From: Chlamydiota bacterium
GTDB taxonomy: Bacteria; Chlamydiota; Chlamydiia; Chlamydiales; Rhabdochlamydiaceae
Direction: 5' to 3'
Length of the DNA stretch: 36,464 bases
Assembly (NCBI GenBank): GCA_011065235.1
Contig: JAAKFB010000001.1
Location: 1 to 36,464 of the forward strand
The position numbers and the translations under genes are program-made. Under the pieces are notes generated by a model. That model was not told the origin of the DNA and ran no database searches. It saw only the letters and a program-made list of their open reading frames with translations. How positions within the stretch are numbered: the stretch's first letter is position 1; each line of letters starts with the position of its first letter. Shown here piece after piece: positions 1 through 36,464 of the stretch.

Positions 1-194
1 CCTTTACGCTTAAGCTTAGGTATCCATTCTTTTTTCAGTCTCTCCATACATTGTTCATATTTATGTGTGATAATGTACGCCACTCTTCTCTTAAAATCCT
101 TGTCAATCTCATCGATATGAATATCGTTGCAAATAACTTTTTTCTTTATTGGAGACAAGTCCAAAACCTCTTCACCATCTACTGCAAATTTCAT
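1..194 (-). CDS. P-family small protein P1, 5' portion (ORF starts at 194 and runs off the left edge)
   Basis: ATG at 194..192 with AAGGAG 6 nt upstream, 10 nt after the fibre stop. Hand translation MKFAVDGEEVLDLSPIKKKVICNDIHIDEIDKDFKRRVAYIITHKYEQCMERLKKEWIPKLKRK stays open to nt 1. The first 23 codons are copied (10 mismatches in 82 nt) at 35933..36014. Absent from the ORF track because it is truncated. Confidence 0.6.
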   Translation of the reverse strand, partial: MKFAVDGEEVLDLSPIKKKVICNDIHIDEIDKDFKRRVAYIITHKYEQCMERLKKEWIPKLKRK

Positions 195-218
195 TTTTTT
201 CTCCTTAACAAATTAGAG
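186..218. repeat. 33-bp linker repeat (fibre 3' end / stop / AAGGAG / ATGAAATTT), identical to 36282..36314; first 22 nt also at 35993..36014
   Basis: Direct string comparison: aaatttcatttttttctccttaacaaattagag occurs at both places in the same orientation. Confidence 0.9.
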
Positions 219-2211
219 CTCCTGTCAAACAAGTATATCTAAATCCATTTCCACCTTGAATATCAATATCTTTTGTTGACCCGGATACAGCTACATTTAA
301 GTTCAATGTGTCAGCAGCATCCATATCAACGATTCTTGCAAATGAAAGATTTACACCTCCAGACTGAACTATTTGACCTGGATCAAACCTAACTGCTTGT
401 TGGTTAGTGTTGTTAGACATATCTAGTTGAATCAAGTAATCAGTATAAGATGTAGTTAGTTGTGTAACAGAAACTGTTCCCGACATCATATATTTTCCCG
501 TTACTGGTGCAGTAAATATTCCTGTTGATGCGTTAAAATCACTGTTTTGGTCCCATATTTCATTATCGAATAATATTAGGTATCCCGTTCCATCCCCCGT
601 GGCTGACAATACGGTCGCACTTAAAGATACCGCAAAACAAGGCTGAGATGCATTCGTCATTTCTCCTGCATCTGAAACGAACATTGTGCTTAACTTAACA
701 CCTTTGGCTCCATCATCTCCAATTACCACAGAATTAGCAGTGATATTAGAGCCAGCAGTCACATCTCCAACAGTAGGAGCTTGAAATGTTGGTGCAACAC
801 CGGCTCCATTAGAAGTAAGTACCTCAGTAGCCGTTCCTACCGCTGTAGAAGCAACAGCATTTGCAGAATCTCCTACTAGAACACCAAATTCAGTTAGTGC
901 ACTTACTGTTACTGCCGAGGTTCCGTTTCCTGTTAGAACGCCTGTAAGTGTGGTAGCTCCTGTCCCACCATTAGCTACGAGTACCGGTGAATCAAGGTTA
1001 ACGGTAACAACGGTAGTAGCTCCAGCAGTCGTTAGGCCAGTACCACCAAGAACGGACAAAGCATTTGCTGTTGCTGTTGCGGTCCCGCTATCGGTAGGGG
1101 CTGATGTTACGACTGCTACGGATTCAGCTGCTGTTAAGTGATAAAATTCGTTTGTTGTTCCGCCTTGGAGGGAAGATAAATTATTGTGATTGGTAACTAG
1201 AGCTCCCTGAAAAGAAGTATCATAAACGCTTTCTATAGATTCAACAGTGGCGGCACTTTCCTGGAAGACGAAACGACCCAAAAGAGTAGATTGAACTATA
1301 ATTCTATCTGGAGCTGTGGCAGGAACTGCCTCGGCTTCCGCAGCTGCTTCAGAAGTATATTGGTTTCTTCCGTATTGCATGGTTACGCCACCATCTAGCT
1401 CTAAGTAAAACCAAAGAACAGCCCATCTATTATTAGAAATAGTCGCTAATACACCACTGTTATCATCATATTTAGTGTTAGGCCATTGAGTTGCCGAAGC
1501 AACTTCGGTAAAACCACCACTCCCATCTCTAAAGTAAATATCAAATGACCCGGAAGACGAGGTATCTAGAGCTGAAATAGAAAACTTAGTGATTCTATCC
1601 CAAAGAGCACCAGCAGAAAGGGTGAAATTTCTCGTTCCTGATTCCCCAAGTATGAGGCCTCCTGTTCTTGCGTCTCTAGCGTCCGGTAAAGTTTCAAACA
1701 CTCTCTCAATCAGTTTGCCGACACCTTCAGATACTTTATGAGGAGCATTTTCAAAATGAAGAGTGGTAGCATCATTTACAACATTGCCTAGAGGAAACTC
1801 AGTATCTAAATTCCAAGAATATGAAGTTTTAACGACTACTTGAGGAGTACCGCTGTTGTATTCTATGCCCACATATCTAGCTGTATCTGTAGGAATAGCT
1901 GTGCCTGAGACGGCTGGCCAGTCAAACATGATTAATTCGGCAGTATCAGAGTTCGTAGCTCGAATCAATCCAGTCCCAGCAGCGACATCAAAAGTTTCAC
2001 CTCCGGCATCTGAAATAACACCTCCAGATTCCTGACCTGCTGACCCTAATACGTTGATGGATTCCTGTAGCGTGGAAAAAGTCGATCCTGTGATGAAAGA
2101 AACTGCTGCTGTTCCCACATCTTCAAATGTAGGAGCTACAGCGCCGCCATTGCTTCGAAGAACTTTAGTTCCTGTTCCACCGTCTTGTCCTAATGCGTTA
2201 TTTATTGCCAT
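205..2211 (-). CDS. tail fibre protein (fibre B) with C-terminal C1q/TNF-like globular domain
   Basis: 668-aa ORF with a Gly/Thr/Ala/Ser-rich shaft. It carries the motif TDSGTATATANALSVLGGTGLTTAG shared with other fibre-like ORFs, and HNNLSSLQGGTTNEFYHLT. The last ~140 aa match the gC1q pattern (CFAVSL.., STGIFTAPVTGKYMMSGTV, DTLNLNV, LTGALI). Its start overlaps the upstream stop by 1 nt. Confidence 0.8.
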   Translation of the reverse strand: MAINNALGQDGGTGTKVLRSNGGAVAPTFEDVGTAAVSFITGSTFSTLQESINVLGSAGQESGGVISDAGGETFDVAAGTGLIRATNSDTAELIMFDWPAVSGTAIPTDTARYVGIEYNSGTPQVVVKTSYSWNLDTEFPLGNVVNDATTLHFENAPHKVSEGVGKLIERVFETLPDARDARTGGLILGESGTRNFTLSAGALWDRITKFSISALDTSSSGSFDIYFRDGSGGFTEVASATQWPNTKYDDNSGVLATISNNRWAVLWFYLELDGGVTMQYGRNQYTSEAAAEAEAVPATAPDRIIVQSTLLGRFVFQESAATVESIESVYDTSFQGALVTNHNNLSSLQGGTTNEFYHLTAAESVAVVTSAPTDSGTATATANALSVLGGTGLTTAGATTVVTVNLDSPVLVANGGTGATTLTGVLTGNGTSAVTVSALTEFGVLVGDSANAVASTAVGTATEVLTSNGAGVAPTFQAPTVGDVTAGSNITANSVVIGDDGAKGVKLSTMFVSDAGEMTNASQPCFAVSLSATVLSATGDGTGYLILFDNEIWDQNSDFNASTGIFTAPVTGKYMMSGTVSVTQLTTSYTDYLIQLDMSNNTNQQAVRFDPGQIVQSGGVNLSFARIVDMDAADTLNLNVAVSGSTKDIDIQGGNGFRYTCLTGALIC

Positions 2212-2738: not shown

Positions 2739-2746
2739 TTTATCCC

Positions 2747-3301: not shown

Positions 3302-3322
3302 GATCTCTTCCTTGTGATAGAT

Positions 3323-3350
3323 ACATAGGCAGCACTAAGGCTGCCTATGT
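3323..3350 (-). terminator. intergenic hairpin, possible terminator or RNA-processing site
   Basis: Perfect 11-bp stem (acataggcagc / gctgcctatgt) with a 6-nt loop, located between the stop at 3359 and the next start at 3301. Only a weak U-run follows on the minus strand. Confidence 0.4.
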
Positions 3351-3358
3351 TCTGAGTT

Positions 3359-3556
3359 TTACTTTGACTTATCTTTTTTTTCATCTTTAGTTTTCTTGTT
3401 TTTTTCGTGATGTTCGTTGATCAATCTAACAATTTCATCCATGAACGCACCCACTACTTCGTAGGCTTCCCCCAATGGAGCACTTACAGGCATTGAGAAT
3501 CTGTAAATTCTGTCTTCTTTCTCAACTTCAAGTACAATGTCATTTTTTGCTTTCAT
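3359..3556 (-). CDS. small hypothetical protein downstream of the large fibre (possible fibre chaperone)
   Basis: The ORF-track frame is trimmed to the internal ATG at 3556 (MKAKNDIVLEVEKEDRIYRF..), which lies after the fibre stop at 3582. It has a lysine-rich C-tail. The functional call is positional only. Confidence 0.5.
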   Translation of the reverse strand: MKAKNDIVLEVEKEDRIYRFSMPVSAPLGEAYEVVGAFMDEIVRLINEHHEKNKKTKDEKKDKSK

Positions 3557-3581
3557 AAATAAGCCCTTTTTTTTCGGATCC

Positions 3582-5981: not shown

Positions 5982-6160
5982 TGATGGGTGCTCCTAAAAT
6001 ATATCCTCTAGTGAATCCTAAAGTGGTTCTGATCCGCTAGAAGTAGTTCATATATTTTCTGGCAATCTCGCAGACTGCCTCTTATCCGAGAAATTCAGAA
6101 AGAACTCTCGGGATGTATCCCTACGATCATTCTATACCATAGAGATTTTTTTATCTTGTG

Positions 6161-7600: not shown

Positions 7601-7603
7601 TTT

Positions 7604-9106: not shown

Positions 9107-9921
9107 TATCTTGCCTCCAGCATCTCAACTTTTTTGTTGAGGTCCTTGATCGAATTAATCATGATGCCCATCAAACCATAGAGATCGACGGCTTTGATTC
9201 CTGAAATTTCTGTTTGGATTTCTTCAGGAACTTTCTCAGCGATGACACCTACTTTATCCTTCAATCCTCCCACTTGTTCGATAAAATCGTACATCTTGAC
9301 ATCGAGATTTTTGAGTGTCTCTAATCCTGTTTTGTATTCTCGGATGTTTTCTTTGACATGTTCAGAAGACATCGCTGTAGTTATACCAAGTTGGGCGAGA
9401 ATTTGCATAAGAGGACCCATTATTCCCTGTTGTTCTTGTATATGAGGTTCAAATGTTCTCTGGTTAGAAAGTCCTCCTAGACCTGAAAGAGCAGAAATTC
9501 TATTTGATTGACCTTGTTGGTAGAAGTTAGCTTCTTGAGCGCCAAGGGACGTTGTAAGGTCTGTAGCGCTTTGAGCTAGGGCTTGGTTCAATGCTGAAGA
9601 AGACCCTGCATTCTCATCGACATAACGCTGCTGAATGGCAGGTAATACACGTTGCTCATATTGCTGCATTGCAGGATCTACAACTGATCGTTGAAACAAA
9701 TCTTGACTAGGTGGCTGAAGTAGATCGCTGTAGGCTTGACCCGCTTGTTCGCCCAGGCCCGGAAGACCTAGACCCTGTAAGAACTGTTGTTGTTCCGGAG
9801 ATAACAGGCCGATGTCTTTTTGTCTCGTCGTCCCTCCGGTTAGAGTCCTTTGACCCTGCTTCGTTGCTGCCAATCCTGCCACTGGCCCCCCCAATGCTGT
9901 CGCTAGTCCTGCCTTTCCCAT
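9106..9921 (-). CDS. virion-associated protein (internal/ejection-protein position)
   Basis: 271-aa ORF with ATG at 9921 preceded by GGAGG 7 nt upstream. Gly/Ala/Gln-rich N-part (MGKAGLATALGGPVAGLAATKQGQ). Confidence 0.6.
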   Translation of the reverse strand: MGKAGLATALGGPVAGLAATKQGQRTLTGGTTRQKDIGLLSPEQQQFLQGLGLPGLGEQAGQAYSDLLQPPSQDLFQRSVVDPAMQQYEQRVLPAIQQRYVDENAGSSSALNQALAQSATDLTTSLGAQEANFYQQGQSNRISALSGLGGLSNQRTFEPHIQEQQGIMGPLMQILAQLGITTAMSSEHVKENIREYKTGLETLKNLDVKMYDFIEQVGGLKDKVGVIAEKVPEEIQTEISGIKAVDLYGLMGIMINSIKDLNKKVEMLEAR

Positions 9922-10384
9922 TTTCTTCCTCCGTATATTCCATTAAAACATGTTTGGATCTCTTGAATCCATATCTTTCTTGATGCTTAGGATATTTCGA
10001 TATCCATAAAACTTTGTTGAGATTTCCTTTTTTTCGAAACTCCCCGATAAATTTTGCTAACTTCTCAACTGCCTTATTTTTGAACCAATATTCATTGTCC
10101 AAGGAATAGGTGTGAATGCAAATATCTTTCGAGAGAGGATCGACTGTAAACCATACGAATCCCTTAGTCAAATTCTCTTCATTTGCCAACACATAGAGAT
10201 GGTTGTAAGGATTCAGTTGTACGCCATTTTCGTACGACTGAACACATGCCACTTCTTGAAATTTGTAGAAATCGTCTACTTCAAAAGATCTATCTCTTAT
10301 CTGCTCAACAAGATATTTGGGGATGTGAACAGGAGTGAAAACGCGTATCCATTTCAGATTATCAAATTTCTTTTCATCACTCAT
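9707..10384 (-). CDS. hypothetical protein in the virion module; first ~155 aa weakly acetyltransferase-like, last ~70 aa overlap the next gene out of frame
   Basis: 225-aa ORF. The C-terminal part of the globular region (..KYPKHQERYGFKRSKHVLME) loosely resembles the end of a GNAT fold, but motif A is degenerate. The tail (GRTSDSIGGASGRIGSNEAG..) looks like an off-frame read of 9106..9921. Confidence 0.5.
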   Translation of the reverse strand: MSDEKKFDNLKWIRVFTPVHIPKYLVEQIRDRSFEVDDFYKFQEVACVQSYENGVQLNPYNHLYVLANEENLTKGFVWFTVDPLSKDICIHTYSLDNEYWFKNKAVEKLAKFIGEFRKKGNLNKVLWISKYPKHQERYGFKRSKHVLMEYTEEENGKGRTSDSIGGASGRIGSNEAGSKDSNRRDDETKRHRPVISGTTTVLTGSRSSGPGRTSGSSLQRSTSAT

Positions 10385-10937
10385 CTTGCTGTCCTATATA
10401 TCTGATATGCCCAATCAATTGACCACTTCCAACAACTGCCTGCCTAGCTGTTGTGAATGCACTTCCTACATTCCAAAACTCAGCTCTAAAGGTGTTTGAG
10501 ATGCCATTAACGACGATCCCCGTTCCACCGGTGTATGTTAGTGCTGATGATTGAACCACCCCAACAAAAGGCTTCTGATTTGCGAGAGCAACCTTGTAAG
10601 GTAGTTCAATAAAAAGATTCCCTGATGCTCCTCCAGTAGCTGACCATTGAATGTCAAACCATACATCGACTATAATGCCTTGTCTAAGGACCCAACCTGT
10701 ATTATGAGTGTAAGTGAATGATCCCGATGTGGTCGTTCCCTTAAGGAGTGGTGTCCATAGATCGCTATCTACACCAAAATCAGCTCTAATTGTTCCATTT
10801 ACAGCTTCGGCAATCATCTCATACATACGCTGTAAGCTGAAATTCAACTCACGCATGTAGTCATCCATATCTTTTGGTTCACCTGATTTGATGTAATCGG
10901 AATGCAAAGGGAGAATGATGTTAGAGGGTAACGTCAA
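10377..10937 (-). CDS. fibre-tip-like protein, paralogue of the fibre-A C-terminal domain
   Basis: 186 aa. Residues ~60-186 (WTPLLKGTTTSGSFTYTHNTGWVLRQGIIVDVWFDIQWSATGGASGNLFIELPY..) align by eye with fibre A residues ~178-306 (FTPVIDGAVSG..GIYARVGPLVILQFDLSWTDLNGASGNIVLSGFP..). 4-nt ATGA overlap with the upstream gene. Confidence 0.65.
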   Translation of the reverse strand: MTLPSNIILPLHSDYIKSGEPKDMDDYMRELNFSLQRMYEMIAEAVNGTIRADFGVDSDLWTPLLKGTTTSGSFTYTHNTGWVLRQGIIVDVWFDIQWSATGGASGNLFIELPYKVALANQKPFVGVVQSSALTYTGGTGIVVNGISNTFRAEFWNVGSAFTTARQAVVGSGQLIGHIRYIGQQDE

Positions 10938-13051
10938 TTGATTGTCCTCTTACCACGGGCTTTGAATGAAGGCTTGAAAGCCTCAATTCTTAACGGTTGA
11001 TTAGAGCCTTCATTGGATATTTTCATCGTATGTTGAAATCCAATCCCTCCAGCAATGATTCTCTTCCAGGATATCGTTCTGTAAAATTTCTTTCTGACAA
11101 CCTGTCCACCAGTTGTGTATGTAGAGAATAGGGAACCATCTATACCGTCTAGGGAAAAATTGTTCGCATCAACCAGGGTGATAGTGTACTCACCGTTAAT
11201 ACCAATCTTACCCTGAACACCATAGATGTATATGATGTCACCTGTTGATAATCCATGGTTGGACGCTTCTACAACTGCCGGGTTTGCGTCTGAGATATTT
11301 GCAACAGATGCCACATAGTCCAAGGGAGGTAAAATATCACTTTGGCGTGTGACATACGGAGCAGTATCAGAGTCTTTGAAAAATTGAACAGTAATTCGGG
11401 TAGTTGATTCGGTCTGGACAAGAAGATCAACGTAATTGAGTTGACACTCCTTACCCTCCTTCTGAAATGGGTTCCAGGCATTAGTCGTAAGATTACACGA
11501 AATATCGGTTTCATTATCTGTCCCTGTTGTTTGCAATGTATGGACTACACCACCTGTTGTTCCACCAACGAAAACCTCTGCATCGTCTTGCCAAAAATAG
11601 GATTGTAGTGTCTCTTCATTCATGTCCGATAGCTTAAAATCCAGTCCATTTTCAGCAGTAAAATCACTAAGTTTGTAGTCATATCCTTGGTTGGCTAATC
11701 CTAGAACATTCATTGCGATGTCATACTGAGAATATGCGGAAGATTCATCATCAAAAATTAGAGCTTTAGTGCTTTCCGTGGATCCTGAGGGAGGATAGAG
11801 AGTCCAAAATCTTTGGTTATTGAAGTCTCTCGCGCAAAATACTTTTTGGAAGTTGGTAGTGTCCACTTCATCAGATGTGAAGTCATGAATTCTCTCGTCG
11901 ATTCTTCTTGTTTCAACGCCGTCGGTTGCTGTTATTCCTCTGACACCAAAGCCAACGATATATCGATCGAATTGGGATGTTGCCATCTTGCCATCACAGG
12001 CCCTAAAATCATTAATTTTATCCCACCTAAATGGTTTTGCCGGATCGCCGGTATTAGGTCGTAAAGTCCATACTGAGTTCGTAAAAAACACGATGATAAT
12101 ATCCTGAAGTGGTCGAGCAGATATTATTTGTTGACCAGTAGGAGCATCGACGAAACCACCTTGTCCAGGTATTACATCATTCCAAATTGAAGGGCTTTGG
12201 ACTTGGCTAAACCTCGCCCGTTGAGGGAAGGTTTTTGTCGATGCAGTGGCTGAGTCAAATTCAAATGTGTGCAGAACAACTAGTCGTTGTCGGATTGAAA
12301 ATATTAGCTTTGATCCGTAGAGAGTTCGCGTAGAGCTAAGTGTGGGTCGAAATCCTGTCGTTATTGTTGTGGAAACTAATGGATCGTAAAAACGTATCCC
12401 GTCAAGACTTACATTATCGAAAGCCTTTCCATTAGTGAAATACATACGGTTGGTTCCGCCAGTACTTTGCCAATTCTCAGTCCATATATAATCAGTGTCA
12501 CTACCACTCATGATATCGGCTGTATCTAAAGGGTCAAACCTGTCCGATATTCTGTTATAGAAAGCTGCTCGCTTAGTGTCGAAAGCCAGAAATGTTTTGG
12601 ATCCGTCAGAGGCATAATATATATGCAAACCCATCATTCTGTTTGCATCAAATAGAGCTACCCGTCCACCTGTTGTATATGAAGTGAATGCCGAAGTATT
12701 TTCACCTGAAAGTTCAAGAGTATTTGGTGCAACATTAGCTGCCGTAAAGGTACGATTGTTGAGTTCTGTCATTCCTCCAACATTGGTAATCAATACTTTC
12801 TGACCATTTGTGATTCCATGTCCGTTAGCTGTAACTACTCCAGGATTTGCTTCAGTTATAGCTGTGATCGTTGTAGCAGGATTGTGAACCATGAATCCGA
12901 ATAGGCGAAATCCACCACGTTTTTCAATAAATCCGTGATGAACATGGAAGTTGTTTAGCTCTTCAAATGAATCGATAGGCGCGAGCCATGGCGAAACGTC
13001 AGTGTCTATGCCTGTTTTAAATGGTGCAATTAAGACAGGTTGGGTCATCAA
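10934..13051 (-). CDS. large tail structural protein (nozzle/tubular-protein position) carrying two FCCH-like modules
   Basis: 705-aa ORF. Module copies lie at aa ~60-132 (nt 12656..12874) and aa ~580-650 (nt 11102..11314). Coupled by 4-nt overlaps on both sides. Confidence 0.65.
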   Translation of the reverse strand: MMTQPVLIAPFKTGIDTDVSPWLAPIDSFEELNNFHVHHGFIEKRGGFRLFGFMVHNPATTITAITEANPGVVTANGHGITNGQKVLITNVGGMTELNNRTFTAANVAPNTLELSGENTSAFTSYTTGGRVALFDANRMMGLHIYYASDGSKTFLAFDTKRAAFYNRISDRFDPLDTADIMSGSDTDYIWTENWQSTGGTNRMYFTNGKAFDNVSLDGIRFYDPLVSTTITTGFRPTLSSTRTLYGSKLIFSIRQRLVVLHTFEFDSATASTKTFPQRARFSQVQSPSIWNDVIPGQGGFVDAPTGQQIISARPLQDIIIVFFTNSVWTLRPNTGDPAKPFRWDKINDFRACDGKMATSQFDRYIVGFGVRGITATDGVETRRIDERIHDFTSDEVDTTNFQKVFCARDFNNQRFWTLYPPSGSTESTKALIFDDESSAYSQYDIAMNVLGLANQGYDYKLSDFTAENGLDFKLSDMNEETLQSYFWQDDAEVFVGGTTGGVVHTLQTTGTDNETDISCNLTTNAWNPFQKEGKECQLNYVDLLVQTESTTRITVQFFKDSDTAPYVTRQSDILPPLDYVASVANISDANPAVVEASNHGLSTGDIIYIYGVQGKIGINGEYTITLVDANNFSLDGIDGSLFSTYTTGGQVVRKKFYRTISWKRIIAGGIGFQHTMKISNEGSNQPLRIEAFKPSFKARGKRTIN

Positions 13052-18051: not shown

Positions 18052-20122
18052 TTAGTACCTCCGTGGATTGTTGTTGAAATTCCGGTGTTCCTTGTGGAAC
18101 AACGGGTTGTTGCTGCGGTTGACCAATTTCTTGACCAATTGCAGAAATTTGTACATCTTCAGCTTTTATTTGATTCTCTCTAACTCGATTCATATCTTCC
18201 ATTGATCGGATAATGGCGAGATATTTCACTATCCTTTCGTCGTCCATCGATTCAAGTTCTTTCATAGCTTTAATGCGACTCAAAGCAGCATCTGATCGAT
18301 CTGCAACGGCCTTAGCTGCACGCTCATCTTCAAGCCCCATATTGGCTACAGCACGCGTATATCTCTCTTTAGATAGTGCGATGTCAGAAATTGCTTTCGC
18401 TTGAGACATTTCACCTTGAGATTGGAGAACTTTCGCTTGTATTTGTTGCTGTTCCTGCGCTTGCTGGGCCTGCTGCTGCTCCATTTGAGCGATCTGCTCA
18501 ATATATTTGGTTTTACCTTGAATAGGTGCAGCTTCAGCGAGCATTTCACCTGTAACAGGAGCACCAAGCTGCTTGAGGTCCACCAACTGACGAAAGTACA
18601 TCTGTTTCTGGGTCTCTGTTAACATTCCTTCTTGAACTGACACGTCATATTTGGTAAATTCTCTGTCGTAAAACTCTGCTGTAGGTTCCTCATTGATGAT
18701 TCGTTTGATTTTCTCGGGAGTCCACTGCTGAATTAGCTTGAGAACTTTCTGGGAGAGTTGTTTTTGTGCGAATCTTAAGTTGTCAAATACATCCTGGATA
18801 TTTACGATCGCAGCCCCCTGTCTCATCATCATCATCACACCAGATTCATTACCTGAATCAGCAATACCAAACGCAGCGTCGTTAATACCAGCGATCTCAG
18901 TCATATCTTTATCAAAGAGTTCTTGGAGTTGGAACATGGAAGGAGGGATTTGAGCAGGAGGTATTTTCTCAATTGCTCCAGGTGGCGCATCTTCTCGTCT
19001 CCAAATTACTTTACCCTGACTTGTCTGAAAGAGTGATCTAGGATTGACGACGCTATTCTCGTTGGCTATCCATCCAGAATTAATTTGGGAATCCAAGACA
19101 TCAATCATTTGGGATCTTCTACGATTTGCTTCACGTTGTGGGTCGCGCATGCAACGAATTAACGATTGAAGCTTTAGGCCCCACTGATCGGATTCAGGTT
19201 CCCATATGCTGGTAAAAGGGACGAAAGGATATTCATTCAAACCGTACGGATCCTCGTCGGTTTTCATGACAACATCGTTAACAATCACATGGCGTACAAT
19301 GTATCGTTGAGGTCGTTCCACAATCTTTAGATTTTCATGCATCGAAAGAAGAAGTTTTTGACGATCCTTAGGGACATCAAAGTCAGTGAAATCACCTGTT
19401 TCCATATCCACTAGAACAGGAACGTTTCGCCATTTCTGTAGGAAGAACTCATTGTAAGCCATGAGATCTTGACCGTTAGGTTGTCGTTGGTACGGAAGCC
19501 ATGTAAACTTTTCGTCTCTAGCCCATCCTGCTCTATAGATGTCATGGATCTCATCCTCCATACCTGGAAGGAGAGAAGCCACTTGGTCAGGGCCTAAGTA
19601 TTTTCTTCGCATAAGGAAATCGCAGTCGGACCAATCGAGCTTTGTGAAATAGGGATCTACAATGAAACCGTTGTAGGGATCTCTTCCAAATTTGATGTCT
19701 CCATTGATAGGATCATCTCGGTAATCCATCCAAACGGAACAGAGATTCCAACCAGTTTTGATTGCTCCACCAAAACAGTCAGAGATTGTGCGATATCCAT
19801 CCCCGTAATTCATTACATGCATGAGAAGCTGGGAGAGCTGATCAGCTGTTTTTTGATCGGAGTTTTCTACTGGAAGGACTATAGAAGAAAGACGATGTTT
19901 CCGCTGATATCCCGTGATCATGTTGATATTGCGTCTTACGCGGTTGAATACAAACGCATTCCTTCCCTCTTGGAAGAGCTGCCTTTTTTCTTGCTCGTCC
20001 CACTGATCCCCCAAGTAAAATCTAAGGTCTCTCTCAGCTTCAGGAAAAAATTGGTCCCACGCATAGTACGCATCGGTGTACAATTCGCTAAAGTCCTGGA
20101 GTATCGACTGATCAGTTGACAT
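18029..20122 (-). CDS. portal protein
   Basis: 697 aa. N-terminal pattern AERDLRFYLGDQWDEQEKRQLFQEGRNAFVFNRVRRNINMITGYQR is typical of portals. It has a long Q/A/E-rich C-terminal coiled-coil 'barrel' and follows terL. AGGAGG 9 nt upstream of the ATG. Confidence 0.85.
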   Translation of the reverse strand: MSTDQSILQDFSELYTDAYYAWDQFFPEAERDLRFYLGDQWDEQEKRQLFQEGRNAFVFNRVRRNINMITGYQRKHRLSSIVLPVENSDQKTADQLSQLLMHVMNYGDGYRTISDCFGGAIKTGWNLCSVWMDYRDDPINGDIKFGRDPYNGFIVDPYFTKLDWSDCDFLMRRKYLGPDQVASLLPGMEDEIHDIYRAGWARDEKFTWLPYQRQPNGQDLMAYNEFFLQKWRNVPVLVDMETGDFTDFDVPKDRQKLLLSMHENLKIVERPQRYIVRHVIVNDVVMKTDEDPYGLNEYPFVPFTSIWEPESDQWGLKLQSLIRCMRDPQREANRRRSQMIDVLDSQINSGWIANENSVVNPRSLFQTSQGKVIWRREDAPPGAIEKIPPAQIPPSMFQLQELFDKDMTEIAGINDAAFGIADSGNESGVMMMMRQGAAIVNIQDVFDNLRFAQKQLSQKVLKLIQQWTPEKIKRIINEEPTAEFYDREFTKYDVSVQEGMLTETQKQMYFRQLVDLKQLGAPVTGEMLAEAAPIQGKTKYIEQIAQMEQQQAQQAQEQQQIQAKVLQSQGEMSQAKAISDIALSKERYTRAVANMGLEDERAAKAVADRSDAALSRIKAMKELESMDDERIVKYLAIIRSMEDMNRVRENQIKAEDVQISAIGQEIGQPQQQPVVPQGTPEFQQQSTEVLNGAQTGL

Positions 20123-20172
20123 TAAACCAAACCTCCTATAAGCTTATTACACCCATATGGAGGAGTAAGCTT

Positions 20173-20802
20173 ATGAAACCACTTATCGATATGACCAACC
20201 AGACCTACGGTAGTTGGAAAGTTTTGAAAAGAGGACCAAATACTAAACAAGGTCAAGCGCAATGGATTTGTGAATGTCAGGGATGCTTTGAACTTAAAAT
20301 AGTCAAGGGGTCGCATCTTAGAGATGGAAGAAGTACCAAATGCAAAGACTGCCACAACAAATCTTTTAACAGAAGACATGGAATGTACAGATCCAATGTT
20401 TATGGAATTTGGGAGGAAATGATTCAACGATGCAGTAATTCTAATAATCAAAACTTCAAAAAATATGGAGGACGAGGAATCAAAGTTTGTGAATCTTGGA
20501 AAGATGATTTTCTTAATTTTTGGGGAGACATGGGAAACAAGCCTGAAGGAATGAGTTTGGATCGAATCGACAACGACGGAAACTACTCCAAATCCAACTG
20601 TCGTTGGGCAGACAGATTGACTCAATCTCAAAACACTAGAAGATCTCACCTTCCTGGAAATATTTACGGCGATTGGAGACTTCTTGAAAACACTCCGTAC
20701 AGCAAGAAATCTACCTTTGAATGTGTAAGATGCGGACGCAAAAGAACAGACGAGACGTTCTATGTCACTTCGAAGAAAGCGGCATGCTGTAAATGTACCT
20801 AA
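20173..20802 (+). CDS. HNH-family (IDR-type) homing-endonuclease-like protein with Zn-finger motifs
   Basis: Start set at the ATG at 20173 (GGAGG 8 nt upstream). Motif MSLDRIDNDGNYSKSNCRWADRLTQSQN, plus CxCxxC..CxxC near the N-terminus and CxxC..CCxC near the C-terminus. It is the only plus-strand gene inside the late operon. Confidence 0.75.
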   Translation: MKPLIDMTNQTYGSWKVLKRGPNTKQGQAQWICECQGCFELKIVKGSHLRDGRSTKCKDCHNKSFNRRHGMYRSNVYGIWEEMIQRCSNSNNQNFKKYGGRGIKVCESWKDDFLNFWGDMGNKPEGMSLDRIDNDGNYSKSNCRWADRLTQSQNTRRSHLPGNIYGDWRLLENTPYSKKSTFECVRCGRKRTDETFYVTSKKAACCKCT

Positions 20803-20900
20803 TATTTCTGACAATGTGGTCCTTGCTTGTGCTGAAGCCTCGATGTGGTTCTAGGCTACTTCTAATTCTACACTACACGTTCTTTGTAGTAAATTCAAAT

Positions 20901-22166: not shown

Positions 22167-22709
22167 TTAACCCCCAACGCATGGAGTTACGCCAGGGGTC
22201 AACTGGGGTGCATGTTGACTGCATTCTTTTAGGTCTTCTCTTACTGCATCAGCGAGCAGAGAGGATTCATTGTTAGTCTTTCGCTCTTTAAAGTCTTGTT
22301 CTGATTTGATAGATTTTAGGGTGTCCAGCAACATCGCAAGCTTACCATTGAAGTGCTCAAGTTCTTGGGGTATATCCCTCTGGCCAAGGAGTTGCTTCCC
22401 AAGCCATATACACATAGCTGCGTTCGTTCTACTAAGATTCATTTGATTTCTACGTAGGCTTGCTTTTCCACCTTCAGCAAATCGTTTATAACAAGTGGAA
22501 AAAGATTCAGAATAATGCCTTTCACACCAACCATTTATGACTCTTTGATCAGATCCAAGTATAGCCTCTAATTCATTCACTGTACAATGGATATGACAAA
22601 GATTCTCAAAGGTCTTCTGATCGAATTCCTTGGGAGGTCTGCCATTCGGTTTGCCGTTAGGTTTGCCGTTAGGTTTGCCGTTAGGTTTGCCGTTAGGTTT
22701 GTTCGTCAT
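22167..22709 (-). CDS. terS: terminase small subunit (start uncertain: 22709 preferred, 22778 possible)
   Basis: GRPPKEFDQKTFENLCHIHCTVNELEAILG..INGWCERH..F (HTH) and ..AAMCIWLGKQLLGQRD are typical of small terminases. The ATG at 22709 has GGAG 6 nt upstream and avoids a long overlap with the DUF551-like ORF. Confidence 0.75.
   Translation of the reverse strand: MTNKPNGKPNGKPNGKPNGKPNGRPPKEFDQKTFENLCHIHCTVNELEAILGSDQRVINGWCERHYSESFSTCYKRFAEGGKASLRRNQMNLSRTNAAMCIWLGKQLLGQRDIPQELEHFNGKLAMLLDTLKSIKSEQDFKERKTNNESSLLADAVREDLKECSQHAPQLTPGVTPCVGG
22648..22695. repeat. perfect 12-bp tandem repeat x4 (ggtttgccgtta), degenerate copies on both sides (22636..22707)
   Basis: Direct reading. It encodes (KPNG)n at the terS N-terminus. 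Confidence 0.95.
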
Positions 22710-22905
22710 AACTTCTCCGTGTGTCTTCTGGTGTCTCAGGTAATCCACACCAGTATTGCCACTTTGGTTTTTCTCCATTTTCTCCTACCCAATGTCTATC
22801 CCACTTCTTGAATCGTCTTGTTTGAACAATGAACCCTCTTTCGTCAATTCCCAATATATGGGTATCAAAAGGGGGTAAGCTCTTAGGTATCTTTTTCCAT
22901 TCCAC
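22693..22905 (-). CDS. DUF551-like small protein
   Basis: 70 aa with a GTG start. Pattern W..IP..LPP.....VLG...........W......QYWCGLPETPED resembles DUF551 phage proteins. Confidence 0.5.
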   Translation of the reverse strand: MEWKKIPKSLPPFDTHILGIDERGFIVQTRRFKKWDRHWVGENGEKPKWQYWCGLPETPEDTRRSYDEQT

Positions 22906-28243: not shown

Positions 28244-29224
28244 TCAAAGTAACCCCCATTTCCTCAAAGCAGAATGGACCTGCTCCTGGAATGCATTTTC
28301 TTTAAATTTTATGGTGAAAGGTTTCCGGGTGCTCGTGGGGTGAGTTGTGTAAATGACTAGAGAGTCCTGTGTTGTAGTCAATTGGACTTGACGCTGGGGA
28401 CCTCTTACGGCATTGAATTCTTCCGCAATACGTTGAGCGTGATCAACATTTGATTCTTGAGCGTCTAGGTTCTCTTGTTTTTTCTTCTTGAGTTCTCGGT
28501 CATTGAGAGCATCGTTTACCCACCGTAAGATCGAACGATAGTCGCTTTTCTTCCACTTGGATTTAGGAGTGTCCATTTTCCATTCGCTTAGGAGTTCGTA
28601 GAGGGATTTTACTCGATCCTCACCGAATGAATTCAAAAGCTTCTCATGCTCAACATCTGTGGTATGGATGTGAAGATTTCTCGGTATTTTTTGTGGAGGT
28701 GAAACGGAAATAGGGGGTTTGGGGGCGCTTGCCCCCTCTCTTTCTTTTGTTAGTCTTTCTTTTGGATAGTCTTTCTTTTGATGGTCTAATGGTTGGACCA
28801 CCCCCTGGTCTAATGGTTGGACCACCCCTGGTCTAATGGTTGGACCACCCCCCACAAAATTTGGACAGACAAATTCAGTCCTTTGGTCTTCTTGATCAAG
28901 TGCATCTTGATATTTTTCATCCAAAGGTTTTTCTATATTCAGACGATATTCGTTGGTTATTGGGCATCCATTTCTTTCTCTTTTGATCATCATGACTAAC
29001 CCACGTTCTTCTAGATTTTTTAGTGAAGAGATAATGCTTTGTTTGGCCATTCCAGTAGCCTTGGTGAGCTGCCTAACAGAGATAAAATCTGATGTTTTAT
29101 GCCATCCAAATATTTTTCTACATAACGTACATAGGGTCTTAAATTCTGTATGAGACAGTCTGTTCATCCAATAGTCAAAAACAACATTTGGAATTGCTGT
29201 GTAGTTGTTTGGTTCGATTGTCAT
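28244..29224 (-). CDS. replication initiator / replisome-organiser-like protein (winged helix N-domain, iterons inside the gene)
   Basis: 326 aa. The N-terminus YTAIPNVVFDYWMNRLSHTEFKTLCTLCRKIFGWHK...SVRQLTKATGMAKQSIISSLKNLEERGLV is wHTH-like. A central linker is encoded by DNA repeats (GVVQPLDQGVVQPLDH). Confidence 0.7.
   Translation of the reverse strand: MTIEPNNYTAIPNVVFDYWMNRLSHTEFKTLCTLCRKIFGWHKTSDFISVRQLTKATGMAKQSIISSLKNLEERGLVMMIKRERNGCPITNEYRLNIEKPLDEKYQDALDQEDQRTEFVCPNFVGGGPTIRPGVVQPLDQGVVQPLDHQKKDYPKERLTKEREGASAPKPPISVSPPQKIPRNLHIHTTDVEHEKLLNSFGEDRVKSLYELLSEWKMDTPKSKWKKSDYRSILRWVNDALNDRELKKKKQENLDAQESNVDHAQRIAEEFNAVRGPQRQVQLTTTQDSLVIYTTHPTSTRKPFTIKFKENAFQEQVHSALRKWGLL
28751..28853. 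promoter_or_regulatory. candidate replication origin: iteron cluster
   Basis: Three tandem copies of tggtctaatggttggaccacccc (28782..28805, 28806..28828, 28829..28853), preceded by two copies of tagtctttcttttg (28751..28764, 28767..28780). An A/T-richer stretch follows at ~28856..28960. Confidence 0.6.
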
Positions 29225-30585: not shown

Positions 30586-31605
30586 ATGTTACAAGAACAC
30601 GTAGAACCAGATGACCTCGTTGAACACACACAAGACATGACCATAACAGATGAAGAGTGGCATGGCATGCATGACAGCCTAAAAGGATTGCTAGATGCGC
30701 TCTATGAAACTGGAGACATCGATAAGGTAGAGGATAACCTAGAAGAAATTTGCTCGTTCTTTGGATACAAGATACCTGCTACGTCTCCAATCGTTTCGAG
30801 CATCAAGAACCAAACCAAAAAGGATAACACTATGACAACACAAATAGCTGTAAGAGATAGCTCAGAGCAAATGCTCGAAGACATTCAGAACACACAGAAA
30901 ATGTGCAAAGCACTCATTGAAACACCTCACTACAGAAAGATGGGAGCAGAGGGTATTTACGCTATCGTTGAGAAATCACGATCCATCGGAGTTAATCCTA
31001 TGGACTCTTTGAATGGTGGAATGTACTTTGTACAAGGCAAAGTTGAGATGTCCGCATTTATGATGAATGGGCTTATTCGGGGAGGTAAGCACAAGCACAG
31101 CATATCCAAGAGCAACAAATCTGACGAAACAATATGTATTCTTCATGGGAAACGTGCAGACAATGGCGACACTTGGGTTGAGTCATTCAGTATTGAGGAT
31201 GCAAAGAAAGCTGGAATCTATAGAAATCAGTGGATTAAATACCCTAAAGATATGCTTTTTGCTCGTGCTTTGAGCCGTCTAGCTAGGCAGTTGTTTCCTG
31301 ATGTTATCAAAGGATGCTATGTACAAGGTGAGATCGAGGAATCTCCTCTACAGCAACATTTGCCAGTTATTGAGATGAAAGAGTCACTACCTGAGATAAT
31401 TTCAGAAGATGAAGCAGAGCACCTTTATGACATGATCGGCACCGACGATAAATACCGCGCTTGTGTTCTTAACTTCCTTCAGTCTGCATACAAGACGAAG
31501 GATTTGAAGAAGATGCCACGAATTCTCTACGAAAAAATAATTCCTGTAGCGACAAGAAAATATGAAGAGAGAAAAGAGATAGTAGACGTGGAGGCAACAG
31601 CATGA
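30586..31605 (+). CDS. recT: RecT/Red-beta-family single-strand annealing protein with an 82-aa acidic N-terminal extension
   Basis: AAGGAG upstream of the ATG at 30586. The core from M83 (nt 30832) has ..IYAIVEKSRSIGVNPMDSLNGGMYFVQGK.. and ..QWIKYPKDMLFARALSRLARQLFPDV.., typical of RecT/Red-beta annealases. It is followed by an exonuclease gene. Confidence 0.75.
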   Translation: MLQEHVEPDDLVEHTQDMTITDEEWHGMHDSLKGLLDALYETGDIDKVEDNLEEICSFFGYKIPATSPIVSSIKNQTKKDNTMTTQIAVRDSSEQMLEDIQNTQKMCKALIETPHYRKMGAEGIYAIVEKSRSIGVNPMDSLNGGMYFVQGKVEMSAFMMNGLIRGGKHKHSISKSNKSDETICILHGKRADNGDTWVESFSIEDAKKAGIYRNQWIKYPKDMLFARALSRLARQLFPDVIKGCYVQGEIEESPLQQHLPVIEMKESLPEIISEDEAEHLYDMIGTDDKYRACVLNFLQSAYKTKDLKKMPRILYEKIIPVATRKYEERKEIVDVEATA

Positions 31606-32438
31606 ACCTACAAGAATATCAAGACTTCGTAAAGTCGCGTAAAAACTACCTGGGAGCCAGCGACGCTCCCGTTATAATGGGTGTGTCTCCTTGGAGCACA
31701 CCCTACCAGCTTTGGCAAGACAAACTAGACTTGGGTCCTGTTAAAGATGACAACTATGCCATGAAGAGGGGGAGAGACCTTGAGCCTATTGCTCGATCTG
31801 CCTACATGGCTGTCACTGGTAATTTGGTTGAGCCCAAGCAGCTTTTTCATCCTAATATCCCGTATATGATGGCTAATTTTGATGGGGTTTCAGAAGACTT
31901 AACCGTAGCTGTTGAAATCAAATGCCCAGGTAAAGAAGATCATGATCTCGCGAAGGATGGTATGGTACCTGTAAAATATTTTCCTCAACTTCAACATCAG
32001 CTTGCAGTTATTGGGATTAATAAGGTAGACTATTTTTCATACAGAGACGATGACGTTGCCCTGGTTACGGTAGAACGAGATGATGAATACATCGAGAAGC
32101 TATACCGGGTAGCAGAAAAGTTTTGGGACTGCGTAGAGTCTTTGACTGCACCACCGTTGGTCGAAAAGGACTACGTAGAACATTCAGATGAAGCTTGGAT
32201 TGAAGCTTCATCTGAATGGTCCCACATTAACGAAGAGATGAATATGCTCAAGGACAAGGAAAAGTTGCTTAGAGAAATATTGATCAACCATGCTGCTGGA
32301 TCGAATTCTAGAGGGAACGGCGTGAAAGTCCAGAAGGTAGTCAGAAAGGGCACCATCGACATGGAAGAGCTTTCAAAGCAGACAGATGTTGAGAAGTTTA
32401 GGAAGCCCCATGTGACTTCTTGGAGGATTTCAAGATGA
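31602..32438 (+). CDS. YqaJ/lambda-exonuclease-like PD-(D/E)XK recombination nuclease
   Basis: LGASDAPVIMGVSPWSTPYQLWQDKL.. and ..FDGVSEDLTVAVEIKCP match the YqaJ pattern. 4-nt overlap with recT. Confidence 0.8.
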   Translation: MNLQEYQDFVKSRKNYLGASDAPVIMGVSPWSTPYQLWQDKLDLGPVKDDNYAMKRGRDLEPIARSAYMAVTGNLVEPKQLFHPNIPYMMANFDGVSEDLTVAVEIKCPGKEDHDLAKDGMVPVKYFPQLQHQLAVIGINKVDYFSYRDDDVALVTVERDDEYIEKLYRVAEKFWDCVESLTAPPLVEKDYVEHSDEAWIEASSEWSHINEEMNMLKDKEKLLREILINHAAGSNSRGNGVKVQKVVRKGTIDMEELSKQTDVEKFRKPHVTSWRISR

Positions 32439-34769: not shown

Positions 34770-35051
34770 ATGAAAGTTTATGCTATTTTATTTTTGATTT
34801 TCTTTACGAATGCTTTTGCTATATGCCCTCTGAATGAAGAGGAGGAACATTTTTTTCTCTACCGTACGCTTATCATGGAAAATTCAGTCTACAACATCGA
34901 AAAAATCTTGCATCACAAAAAGATGGATCCTAAGTTAGCATGGAAGATTCAGAAAGAAGTCGATATCATCAAATTCAACCTAGGAATATGCGAGGATATC
35001 TCTAGGAAGAGGTCACACAATATGCTATTGATCCGTGAAGACTGCCGTTAG
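34770..35051 (+). CDS. small secreted protein (93 aa)
   Basis: AAGGAG 7 nt upstream. The signal peptide MKVYAILFLIFFTNAFA is followed by a 3-Cys mature part. It converges on fibre A, with the 3' ends overlapping by 50 nt. Confidence 0.6.
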   Translation: MKVYAILFLIFFTNAFAICPLNEEEEHFFLYRTLIMENSVYNIEKILHHKKMDPKLAWKIQKEVDIIKFNLGICEDISRKRSHNMLLIREDCR

Positions 35052-35922
35052 ATTGTATTTGGATTTGTGACCCTGATGCATTATCCTCCAGTCCCCATAC
35101 TCGTCCAGTTGTTCCCCCAGATATGATTTCAAATACGCAATAGGTCTTTGTAGAAGGCCACGTTTGTGTTTCTACCCAAATAGTCCCTACTGGAGTTCGA
35201 CTGAACGAACCGGCGGATGCTATTGGAAAACCACTCAACACAATATTTCCTGATGCTCCATTAAGATCAGTCCATGAAAGATCAAATTGAAGGATCACCA
35301 GAGGACCTACACGAGCATAAATACCCGCTTGAACGGTGTTGGTTGTTGGACCACTTACGGCACCATCAATGACTGGTGTAAACGAAGTTTTATTGACCCA
35401 ATTGTCAATAGTGATAGTGGCCGTGCTTCCAGATCCACTGGTAGAAATACCATTACCCCCCGCAATCGTTAGAGCATTAGACGCTGGCGTAGCTGTTCCT
35501 GAGTCCGTAGGGAAAGATAAGGGCACAGTGGCAGTCACATCTATTGTAACGGTCGTTGAAGGGTCTTGTCCTGATGTGACGATTCCAGTACCCCCTGCCA
35601 CAGTGGTAATACCGCTGCCATCAGGTCCGACAGCTGTAGGTCCATCATCAGTGAGAAGAAAGTCAATACCTGGAGCTCCTGCACCACCAGCAAATTGAAT
35701 CCAGAGAGCATCGCCACCGGAAAATTCAGATAGATACCAGAGTTCACCTGCTACACCTGTGGATGGATTTTTTCCAAGAAGAGCAAACTGTCCTACAGGA
35801 TATTTCTTATCAGTCGTAAGAGGCCTTCTAGGGAATCTTTGGATAGGAATGACATCAGCTTGAGGGCCTACATATCGATTAGGAATGCTATTTGGTACAC
35901 CTGTTCTATCAGACATCTGCAT
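35002..35922 (-). CDS. tail fibre protein (fibre A)
   Basis: 306 aa. N-terminal anchor motif (KKYPVGQFALLGKNPSTGVAGELWYLS..DALWIQF) like the 799-aa fibre, and two copies of the DSGTATP..L.I.GG.GI.TSG motif. The C-terminal domain is paralogous to 10377..10937. The start could be the second ATG at 35916. Confidence 0.8.
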   Translation of the reverse strand: MQMSDRTGVPNSIPNRYVGPQADVIPIQRFPRRPLTTDKKYPVGQFALLGKNPSTGVAGELWYLSEFSGGDALWIQFAGGAGAPGIDFLLTDDGPTAVGPDGSGITTVAGGTGIVTSGQDPSTTVTIDVTATVPLSFPTDSGTATPASNALTIAGGNGISTSGSGSTATITIDNWVNKTSFTPVIDGAVSGPTTNTVQAGIYARVGPLVILQFDLSWTDLNGASGNIVLSGFPIASAGSFSRTPVGTIWVETQTWPSTKTYCVFEIISGGTTGRVWGLEDNASGSQIQIQSNGSLHGSIAYCVTSS

Positions 35923-35932
35923 CTCTCTGTTT
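35898..35932. repeat. 35-nt 'fibre-A leader' repeat, copy 1 (identical to 36430..36464)
   Basis: cacctgttctatcagacatctgcatctctctgttt in both places, direct orientation, 532 nt apart. It contains the fibre-A RBS, start and first 8 codons. Confidence 0.95.
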
Positions 35933-36001
35933 ATTGCAAATGACTCTTTTCTTGATTGGATTCAAGTCCAAAATTTCTTCACCATCGACTGTAAATTTCA
36001 T
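35909..36001 (-). pseudogene. truncated P-family gene copy (P3, 30 codons)
   Basis: MKFTVDGEEILDLNPIKKRVICN matches P1 MKFAVDGEEVLDLSPIKKKVICN. It then reads off-frame through the fibre-A leader (KQRDADV*). It keeps the AAGGAG-N6-ATG linker. Confidence 0.5.
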
Positions 36002-36011
36002 TTTTTTCTCC

Positions 36012-36290
36012 TTACGTAATAGAATCCAAACGAACTTCCAATTTTGGTGGCCATCCATGGATGATGTTATTTGCATGTGCAGCGATTCCCGTTGGAGATC
36101 TACCAGGGGGGAACCTCGTGGGTTTTGCTGGTTTATGTGCACCTTTTCGTTTCAGATCGTTAAATTCCTCTTCCGAACGTCCAATTCTTACAAACTTAAC
36201 CATAGTCTCACTGATCCACTCTTTATGAAGGCATTGAGCTTCTAGGAGTTTAGTCTTTTTAACCTCTTTTTCATCACCCACAAATTTCAT
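36012..36290 (-). CDS. P-family small protein P2 (92 aa)
   Basis: AAGGAG-N6-ATG linker. MKFVGDEKEVKKTKLLEAQCLHKEWISETMVKF..FNDLKRKG, followed by the shared C-terminal block AHKPAKPTRFPPGRSPTGIAAHANNIIHGWPPKL. Confidence 0.6.
   Translation of the reverse strand: MKFVGDEKEVKKTKLLEAQCLHKEWISETMVKFVRIGRSEEEFNDLKRKGAHKPAKPTRFPPGRSPTGIAAHANNIIHGWPPKLEVRLDSIT
36039..36144. repeat. ~106-nt coding block 'R', copy 1 (1 mismatch to 36329..36434)
   Basis: Hand alignment at offset 290. The only difference is t36092 versus c36382. Confidence 0.95.
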
Positions 36291-36314
36291 TTTTTTCTCC
36301 TTAACAAATTAGAG
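36282..36314. repeat. 33-bp linker repeat (identical to 186..218), retaining a fibre-B-like 3' end remnant (..SLIC*)
   Basis: Direct string identity. In the linker frame the upstream codons read MCGLSLIC*, compared with ..TGALIC* at the end of fibre B. Confidence 0.9.
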
Positions 36315-36464
36315 ACAAACCGCACATTCAATTTTGGTGGCCATCCATGGATGATGTTATTTGCATGTGCAGCGATTCCCGCTGGAGATCTACCAGGGGG
36401 GAACCTCGTGGGTTTTGCTGGTTTATGTGCACCTGTTCTATCAGACATCTGCATCTCTCTGTTT
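36287..36464 (-). CDS. P1 3' portion (frame open to the right edge; internal ATGs at 36454 and 36448)
   Basis: Hand translation (G)NREMQMSDRTGAHKPAKPTRFPPGRSPAGIAAHANNIIHGWPPKLNVRFVSNLLRRKK*. The TGA stop overlaps the P2 ATG (ATGA). Below the ORF-track cutoff if started at 36454. Confidence 0.5.
   Translation of the reverse strand, partial: NREMQMSDRTGAHKPAKPTRFPPGRSPAGIAAHANNIIHGWPPKLNVRFVSNLLRRKK
36329..36434. repeat. ~106-nt coding block 'R', copy 2
   Basis: See 36039..36144. Confidence 0.95.
36430..36464. repeat. 35-nt 'fibre-A leader' repeat, copy 2 (ends at the window edge)
   Basis: Identical to 35898..35932. It shares CACCT with the end of R copy 2, which is crossover microhomology. 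Confidence 0.95.

Follow-up and report, generated by a model that had tools for sequence, protein, structure and literature searches.

Mosaic joints in phage genomes have precedents in the boundary sequences of lambdoid phages and in the His-box exchange of T-even fibre genes. A gene accordion operates in poxviruses, tandem duplications of lambda and T4 are unstable, and the fibre assembly chaperones Tfa of lambda, U of Mu and gp38 of T4 are encoded directly downstream of fibre genes. Here we analyse a locus of direct repeats between two tail-fibre genes of a phage represented by a stretch of 36,464 nucleotides (nt), filed under Chlamydiota bacterium (NCBI GenBank assembly GCA_011065235.1, contig JAAKFB010000001.1) and hereafter called the window. 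Phage genomes are usually devoid of repeated sequences (De Paepe et al., 2014; PMC3945230). We consider it probable (about 0.6) that this locus is a mosaic recombination scar with by-product open reading frames (ORFs) in a hypervariable fibre module, and that it is fixed and not a switch. It would thus provide an example of phage mosaicism at nucleotide resolution, with a relative termed L004 as the "before" and the window phage as the "after" state, and with orphan ORFs seen arising within a hypervariable fibre module.

Architecture of the repeat locus

All coordinates of the repeat locus are quoted on the minus strand. On one side lies fibre B (668 amino acids [aa]; 205..2211, minus), a tail fibre with a C-terminal C1q-like head that ends in ...TGALIC* and matches PHROG 5668 (tail fiber, E = 3.6e-39) and Pfam C1q (25.4 bits, above the cut-off). 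It is followed by a small gene, P1, and on the other side of the locus by fibre A (304 aa from ATGTCT; 35002..35916, minus), which is 68% identical to the gene after P1 in L004 and whose N-terminal homologues come after P1 in many relatives. The continuity of this arrangement across the window ends is demonstrated by a contig in ENA (ERZ23486233 scaffold_1902, 36,628 nt), the source of the sole protein returned by the search with P2, one of the small ORFs described below. This contig is 99.98–100% identical to the window over 22 kb and joins its ends; together with the matches of fibre B it confirms the position between two tail-fibre genes that had been proposed in an initial annotation of this DNA. 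That annotation had also assumed the window to be circularly closed, which proved incorrect: positions 1 and 36464 are not joined, and 73 nt of P1 are absent between position 1 (...GCGTAAAGG) and position 36464 (AAACAGAGAG...). The window, which is the NCBI record, thus holds the 5' two-thirds of P1 (64 codons; 1..193, minus), annotated there as a partial protein (65 aa) where the contig ends, and the gene continues past the window end. Completed with the 73 nt from the ENA contig, P1 encodes 96 aa and ends in ...EYKDRKQRDADV (KQRDADV).

The closest relative, L004 (Logan SRR31012004; P1 75% and fibre A 68% identical), has the layout ...TGALIC*, linker, P1, ATGTCTGA and fibre A, with no insertion. 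Because L004 lacks intervening DNA at this point, the 532 bp at 35898..36429 (minus) represent a lineage-specific insertion, which is bounded by a duplicated junction of P1 end and fibre-A start. Read on the minus strand, it consists of a first copy of a block termed R (R1), a tail, a junction, the body of P2, a second R copy (R2), a tail, a junction, a copy of the P1 5' end and the leader. Numbered within the insertion, R1 occupies nt 1–101 and is followed by a unique piece (102–115), an exact copy of the fibre-B end with linker and ATGAAATTTG (116–149), the unique P2 body (150–285), R2 (286–391), its tail (392–415), the linker with a P1 5' end of 89% identity (416–496) and the leader (498–532). 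Counted between the repeat blocks, the order is a 25-nt tail after R1, a unique body of 137 nt and a piece of 59 nt that resembles the start of P1.

The leader (AAACAGAGAGATGCAGATGTCTGATAGAACAGGTG, 35 nt) is present in two exact copies at 36464..36430 and 35932..35898 (minus), 532 nt apart. Copy 1 (36430..36464) comprises the last seven codons and the stop of P1, whose TGA overlaps the ATG of the next gene (ATGTCTGA); the P1 3' end precedes it in the ENA contig, and the ORF termed Q1 starts here. Copy 2 (35898..35932) occupies its native place ahead of fibre A, and the same junction is found in L004. The "leader" is therefore the native overlap of the P1 end with the fibre-A start. The R block (106 nt) has its copies at 36329..36434 and 36039..36144 (minus), 290 nt apart; they are identical at 105 of 106 positions, with exact stretches of 52 and 53 nt on either side of a single differing site (G/A). 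It encodes ...AHKPAKPTRFPPGRSP(A/T)GIAAHANNIIHGWPPKL near the 3' ends of the ORFs 36454..36287 and 36290..36012. The 22-nt core of the linker (TAAGGAGAAAAAAATGAAATTT) occurs three times without mismatch, at 207..186, 36303..36282 and 36014..35993 (minus). The first occurrence is part of a 34-nt junction block (185..218, minus) that is conserved in L004 and contains the final 11 nt of fibre B, the TAA, an AAGGAG Shine–Dalgarno (SD) sequence and ATGAAATTTG, the start of P1. The second block (36281..36314, minus) is an exact copy over all 34 nt, including those 11 nt, so that it carries ..CTCTAATTTGT TAA and ends in ..LIC* like fibre B; the third (35993..36014, minus) matches exactly in the 22-nt core only. 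This core belongs to the P1 5' copy (linker plus P1 5' end; 36014..35933, minus), which is identical to P1 at 72 of 81 positions.

The four repeat classes of the initial annotation, i.e., leader, R, linker and P1 5' copy, were thus all recovered, as was its description of near-identical blocks beside diverged flanks: along the locus, R with 105/106 identical positions gives way to about 25 nt in which roughly half are identical, and these to the linker with 22/22. Mapping of the segments to local junctions likewise bears out that the locus was assembled from re-used blocks. All repeats are direct, as had been stated, with no inverted pairs within 35000–36464. By calculation, about 4e-5 exact repeats of at least 22 nt are expected by chance in 36 kb, and exact repeats of at least 20 nt elsewhere in the window are limited to two short local arrays. 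The repeating part makes up 148 of the 290 nt of the 290-nt period, which differs from the head-to-tail homology of whole units that defines a tandem duplication. Each new joint re-uses a native junction, either fibre-B end/linker/ATGAAATTT(G) or P1 end/fibre-A start, and translation downstream is thereby kept.

Small ORFs of the insertion

Three small ORFs lie between the end of P1 and fibre A. Q1 (36287..36448, minus; 53 aa, or 55 aa from the ATG at 36454) is an orphan ORF composed of six fibre-A codons, the R peptide and a tail, and its TGA overlaps the ATG of P2 (ATGA). Q1 is among the genes called in the ENA contig (P0001), has P2 as its only homologue, and its tail shows a radical V/D polymorphism between two near-identical assemblies. 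P2 (36012..36290, minus; 92 aa), also an orphan ORF, consists of a junction-derived start, a unique body, the R peptide and a tail. The third ORF, P3' (35909..36001, minus), is a 30-aa remnant of a P1 paralogue that lost 66 codons by an in-frame internal deletion (VICN|KQRDADV*). P3' retains the stop/start overlap with fibre A and was called as a gene in both the NCBI and ENA records.

The initial annotation had described a three-copy array of P genes. Apart from P1, however, only P3' matches a hidden Markov model (HMM) of the P1 family (E = 9e-5, profile positions 1–25 only), while P2 is not detected by it (E = 6.4). What P2 has in common with P1 is just the junction and about ten codons, with weak likeness over the roughly 40 nt past the start. 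A phmmer search of 1.84 billion representative proteins with P2 returned Q1 plus a single weak match to a repeat protein (P0031, 1884 aa, with repeated C.W.EW motifs); each of the repeats in this only non-self match is weak, and we judged it spurious. An indexed search of 5.8 billion proteins found no homologue of P2 or R besides the protein of its own contig, exact 22–28-mers of R are absent from the viral, metagenome and GTDB genome collections, and neither R nor the P2 body has a relative in the rest of the genome or in 87 related loci. In a tblastx comparison of the insertion with these loci only the junctions and P3' matched. Among known phages, a blastn comparison with INPHARED gave no match.

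Codon usage scores of P2 and R in frame (0.19–0.25) lie within the distribution of real genes, the 95th percentile of off-frame scores being −0.08; the antisense frame of R scores as well. In a single-sequence AlphaFold2 (AF2) model, P2 has a helical body with a predicted local distance difference test (pLDDT) score of about 75, and the part encoded by R, with scores below 50, is predicted to be disordered.

Several possible identities of R were considered and rejected. Alignments of R and the P2 body to P1, fibre A and fibre B were no better than those of shuffled sequences, so that R does not appear as a diverged local copy. Read in another frame, R might have been the 3' remnant of a C1q-head gene, but against a profile built from 72 C-termini encoded upstream of P1 all real frames scored lower than shuffled controls. 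A decayed fibre-A N-terminus as the source of Q1 was dismissed because the alignment is limited to the first six residues, and coding on the opposite strand of R because the antisense ORF has no homologue. Neither a tRNA nor an Rfam family was detected, which argues against R being an RNA element, a fragment of a tRNA or an att site, and R shows no enrichment of promoter-like or terminator-like sites.

The P1 family and its genomic context

P1 belongs to a family of proteins of about 96 aa, for which the protein search yielded 29 clusters and IMG/VR 80 loci. The related set consists of these 80 viral loci and several metagenome contigs, 87 loci being used in the copy-number and tblastx comparisons. 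The completed P1 of the window phage matches the family profile over its full length (144 bits, E = 1.2e-43) and keeps the invariant residues, which include V20, D24, H44, K45, E47, C49, W57, Y86 and R89. P0002, the closest homologue, served as the basis for modelling the family with AF2, at a pLDDT of 94. The model has no significant sequence or fold match in the PDB, and only uncharacterised viral proteins are similar; P1, P2 and Q1 have no Pfam or PHROG match, and no sequence or fold similarity of the P1 family to a known chaperone family (Caudo_TAP/Tfa, gp38-like) was detected.

P1 lies immediately downstream of a C1q-head homologue in most of the 80+ related loci, mostly at a distance of 7–14 nt, and is often followed at −8 to +19 nt by a large gene that frequently has a fibre-A-like N-terminus. 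As a small, confidently folded and uncharacterised family encoded behind C1q-headed fibres, P1 makes a good candidate for work on fibre assembly. Comparison of the related genomes at this locus, as called for in the initial annotation, showed that P1 copy number varies, with two copies in 8 of the 87 loci and some of these fused into one ORF, and that L004 is without the insertion. Many relatives carry two to three tandem C1q-head genes with exact common blocks of 20–98 nt. Judged by these sequences, the region is a hot spot at which duplication and exchange occur throughout the family.

Where relatives carry two P1 genes, a small predicted membrane protein of 70–102 aa is encoded beside them within the fibre module (L063, 4383–4691; L076, 4317–4529). 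The window phage has no counterpart of it at the P1 position.

Predicted recombination capacity and products

The phage encodes its own recombination proteins, in agreement with the initial annotation: a RecT-like annealing protein (30586–31605, plus strand; PHROG 561 RecT-like, E = 5.5e-17) and a RecE/YqaJ-like exonuclease (31602–32438, plus strand; PHROG 434 RecE-like, E = 8.2e-50; Pfam YqaJ, E = 1.5e-25). The minimal pairing segment of Red-beta is 23–27 bp (PMC3945230). As the exact direct repeats of 53, 52, 35 and 34 nt exceed this length, with the 22-nt linker core just below it, and the protein pair is encoded by the phage, deletion or duplication between the repeats by RecT and the exonuclease is mechanistically plausible on sequence grounds.

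Exchange between the two R copies would remove P2, as had been predicted, and leave the joint leader|R(A-type)|tail2 (Δ290), whereas exchange between the leaders would restore an L004-type layout with the joint P1 end|leader|TACCAAAT (Δ532). For the latter event an in-frame fusion of P1 to fibre A had been proposed. With the true 3' end of P1 this fusion does not result; the prediction was wrong because an unclosed contig had been read as a circle. Linker exchanges are predicted to remove P1/Q1, P2 or both. In all these predicted exchanges the coding sequences of fibre A and fibre B remain unchanged, and a switch of fibre architecture is accordingly not supported: no deletion from repeat to repeat reaches either of them.

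Origin of the insertion and alternative explanations

According to the scenario that we favour, the ancestral layout, shown by the relatives, would have been a C1q-headed fibre B, a 10-nt SD linker, P1 (96 aa) and fibre A, whose start would overlap the stop of P1. A donor relative with the order fibre B, linker, P2, linker, a second P1 copy (P1*) and fibre A may have recombined with such a fibre B–P1–fibre A genome. An illegitimate join at an AGGTG microhomology, found in the leader and at the border of P2 body and R, would have placed the 3' part of P2 (R and tail) behind the first leader and so created Q1, and a homologous crossover in the linker would have introduced P2 and, along with it, the terminal 11 nt of fibre B, which would account for the resemblance of SLIC* and ALIC*. 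P1* would then have lost 66 codons in frame, leaving P3'. Fibre A would still be translated behind a short upstream ORF, as in the ancestor, and the insertion would be tolerated because each piece brings duplicate translation signals or junctions. Q1, P2 and P3' are by-products in this scenario, probably translated but not necessarily functional. The RecT/exonuclease system of the phage could delete the insertion again, in which case the small ORFs would be lost and the fibres not remodelled. In this scenario, the donor phage, the sequence of steps and the expression of Q1, P2 and P3' are inferred.

Some observations weigh against a fixed scar. No donor with P2 or R was present in any of the collections searched, and the history that we infer has multiple steps. 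The R copies are 99% identical and the adjoining tail about 50%, a contrast that fits recent gene conversion, and thus some ongoing exchange, at least as well. Moreover, both the NCBI contig and the ENA contig are interrupted in the 3' end of P1, at points no more than about 100 nt apart. Start and end of the ENA contig share an overlap of 91 nt (L001 1–91 vs. L002 12239–12329) with two mismatches (GAATATAAAGACAGA vs. GAAGATAAAGACATA; EYKDRK vs. EDKDIK) that alter the family-invariant residues Tyr86 and Arg89 of P1. These mismatches could be allelic, could stem from an erroneous contig tip or could point to one more, hidden copy of the P1 3' end, and in combination with the shared break they could reflect heterogeneity or an extra hidden copy at this site. 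The NCBI and ENA assemblies, finally, are not necessarily independent and may derive from the same reads.

Such signs of instability would be expected if unequal exchange at the 35-, 34- and 52/53-nt repeats, driven by RecT and the exonuclease, continually yielded genomes with no, one, two or more units, so that either small-ORF dosage or the translational coupling to fibre A would vary. The exact repeats exceed the Red-beta minimum and the phage encodes the recombinase pair, the R and junction blocks are near-identical next to diverged flanks, separate assemblies break at the locus with imperfectly overlapping ENA ends, P copy number differs among relatives, and of only two single-nucleotide polymorphisms (SNPs) between the window and the ENA contig (about 22 kb compared) one sits in the insertion, in the Q1 tail (V/D). 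However, the length variants anticipated by the initial annotation are absent from the recovered contigs (NCBI and ENA, with a consistent Logan contig), none of which has another unit number, and exact look-ups of fibre A, P2 and P3' gave no context other than one arrangement. A Logan contig of another run (SRR8452062), 99.76% identical, begins precisely with the 30 nt that end the leader; at k = 31 a contig boundary 30 nt into the leader implies that the leader is duplicated in that strain too, so that a strain diverged by 0.24% apparently retains the duplication. As strain SNPs, or a circular graph opened at an arbitrary point, can also account for the contig breaks, and all predicted products spare the fibre genes, continual exchange appears rather unlikely to us. 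Clearly more doubtful is the further-reaching proposal that the repeats are in active use and that the population is a standing mix of genomes with no, one or multiple units differing in fibre-A coupling or small-protein dose; if true, a host-range operon of a phage would contain an "accordion" driven by homologous recombination, and new genes would be born there from junction duplications.

Between these two in likelihood, and unlikely as well, we place a functional cassette in which P2 and Q1 are new small proteins with a common C-terminal R module kept by selection, candidate roles being fibre adaptors, assembly factors or host-interaction peptides. Both ORFs retain strong native translation signals (the AAGGAG linker and the ATGA and ATGTCTGA overlaps), R is read in the same frame in Q1 and P2, the P2 body is predicted to be helical, and the codon usage of P2 and R is that of real genes, although the antisense frame of R equals it in this respect. 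Selection on R is difficult to reconcile with the lack of homologues in either protein search (1.84 billion representatives, 5.8 billion indexed proteins), with the predicted disorder of the R part, with the radical V/D difference that near-identical genomes show in the Q1 tail, and with the closest relative L004 living without the insertion. That the repeats and their order stem from mis-joined or collapsed reads is highly improbable. Both long contigs do end inside the locus, the window is short of 73 nt and the two assemblies possibly share their reads, but the longest exact repeat, at 53 nt, is below ordinary read length, so that each joint must occur in reads. Furthermore, the insertion structure is the same base for base in the NCBI and ENA assemblies, the k = 31 contig of the other run starts exactly at the expected repeat boundary, and the joints preserve reading frames and start/stop overlaps, unlike a random mis-join. 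A mosaic scar therefore remains our preferred explanation of the locus.

Other features of the window

Beyond the repeat locus, a protein of 799 aa (3582–5981, minus) contains long internal near-repeats (GxxTxxxVNIA and SLDLLAGTGNFTLDGAATTT motifs) and has no PHROG or Pfam match; it probably represents a further structural protein, fibre- or spike-like. Inside a Phage_rep_O-like ORF (28244..29224, minus), three direct repeats resembling iterons (TGGTCTAATGGTTGGACCACCCC; 23–27 nt, spaced by 23–24 nt) lie at 28782–28852 and probably mark the replication origin. A 12-nt tandem repeat (GGTTTGCCGTTA; 22648–22701, about 4.5 copies) encodes NGKP repeats in an ORF (22167..22778, minus) that comes just before the large terminase gene. 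The interval between terminase and portal genes (20116–20814) has long ORFs on both strands (228 aa on the plus and 230 aa on the minus strand), and the gene called here in ENA (209 aa) runs against the direction of the late operon around it.

Comparison with known systems

P1 resembles the chaperones Tfa, Mu U and gp38 in being small and encoded 7–14 nt behind a fibre gene in nearly all relatives, but differs from them in having no match to a Pfam or PHROG family or to a solved structure. With the invertase switches (Gin/Cin/Min) and diversity-generating retroelements (DGRs) the locus shares its tail-fibre position and the presence of repeated sequence. In contrast to Gin/Cin/Min systems and the shufflon, however, it has no inverted repeat sites, and no recombinase family is among the recorded Pfam hits of the ENA gene calls (covering approximately 1–12,300 and 18,400–36,600, with the capsid/tail middle outside) or in the Pfam and PHROG scans that were run. 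A DGR would differ as well, since R1 and R2 vary at one G/A site only and R lies outside the fibre genes; the recorded Pfam hits of the same gene calls, i.e., most of the genome but not the capsid/tail middle, include no reverse transcriptase domain.

Closer parallels exist to tandem duplications and gene accordions, which have in common with the locus the direct repeats, a unit-like period of 290 nt, the predicted gain or loss by unequal exchange and one degraded copy (P3'). The bodies between the repeats of the window are unrelated, however, and copy number does not vary among the recovered contigs. Gene-boundary mosaicism by Rad52-like relaxed recombination (De Paepe et al., 2014; PMC3945230) is similar in its use of short conserved gene-border sequences as crossover points. 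The locus shares with it the phage's own RecT/exonuclease pair, the location in a tail-fibre (host-range) module and the patchwork of near-identical and diverged segments, and it departs from this model in that no module was swapped and the junctions were instead left duplicated in one genome, in two to three direct copies.

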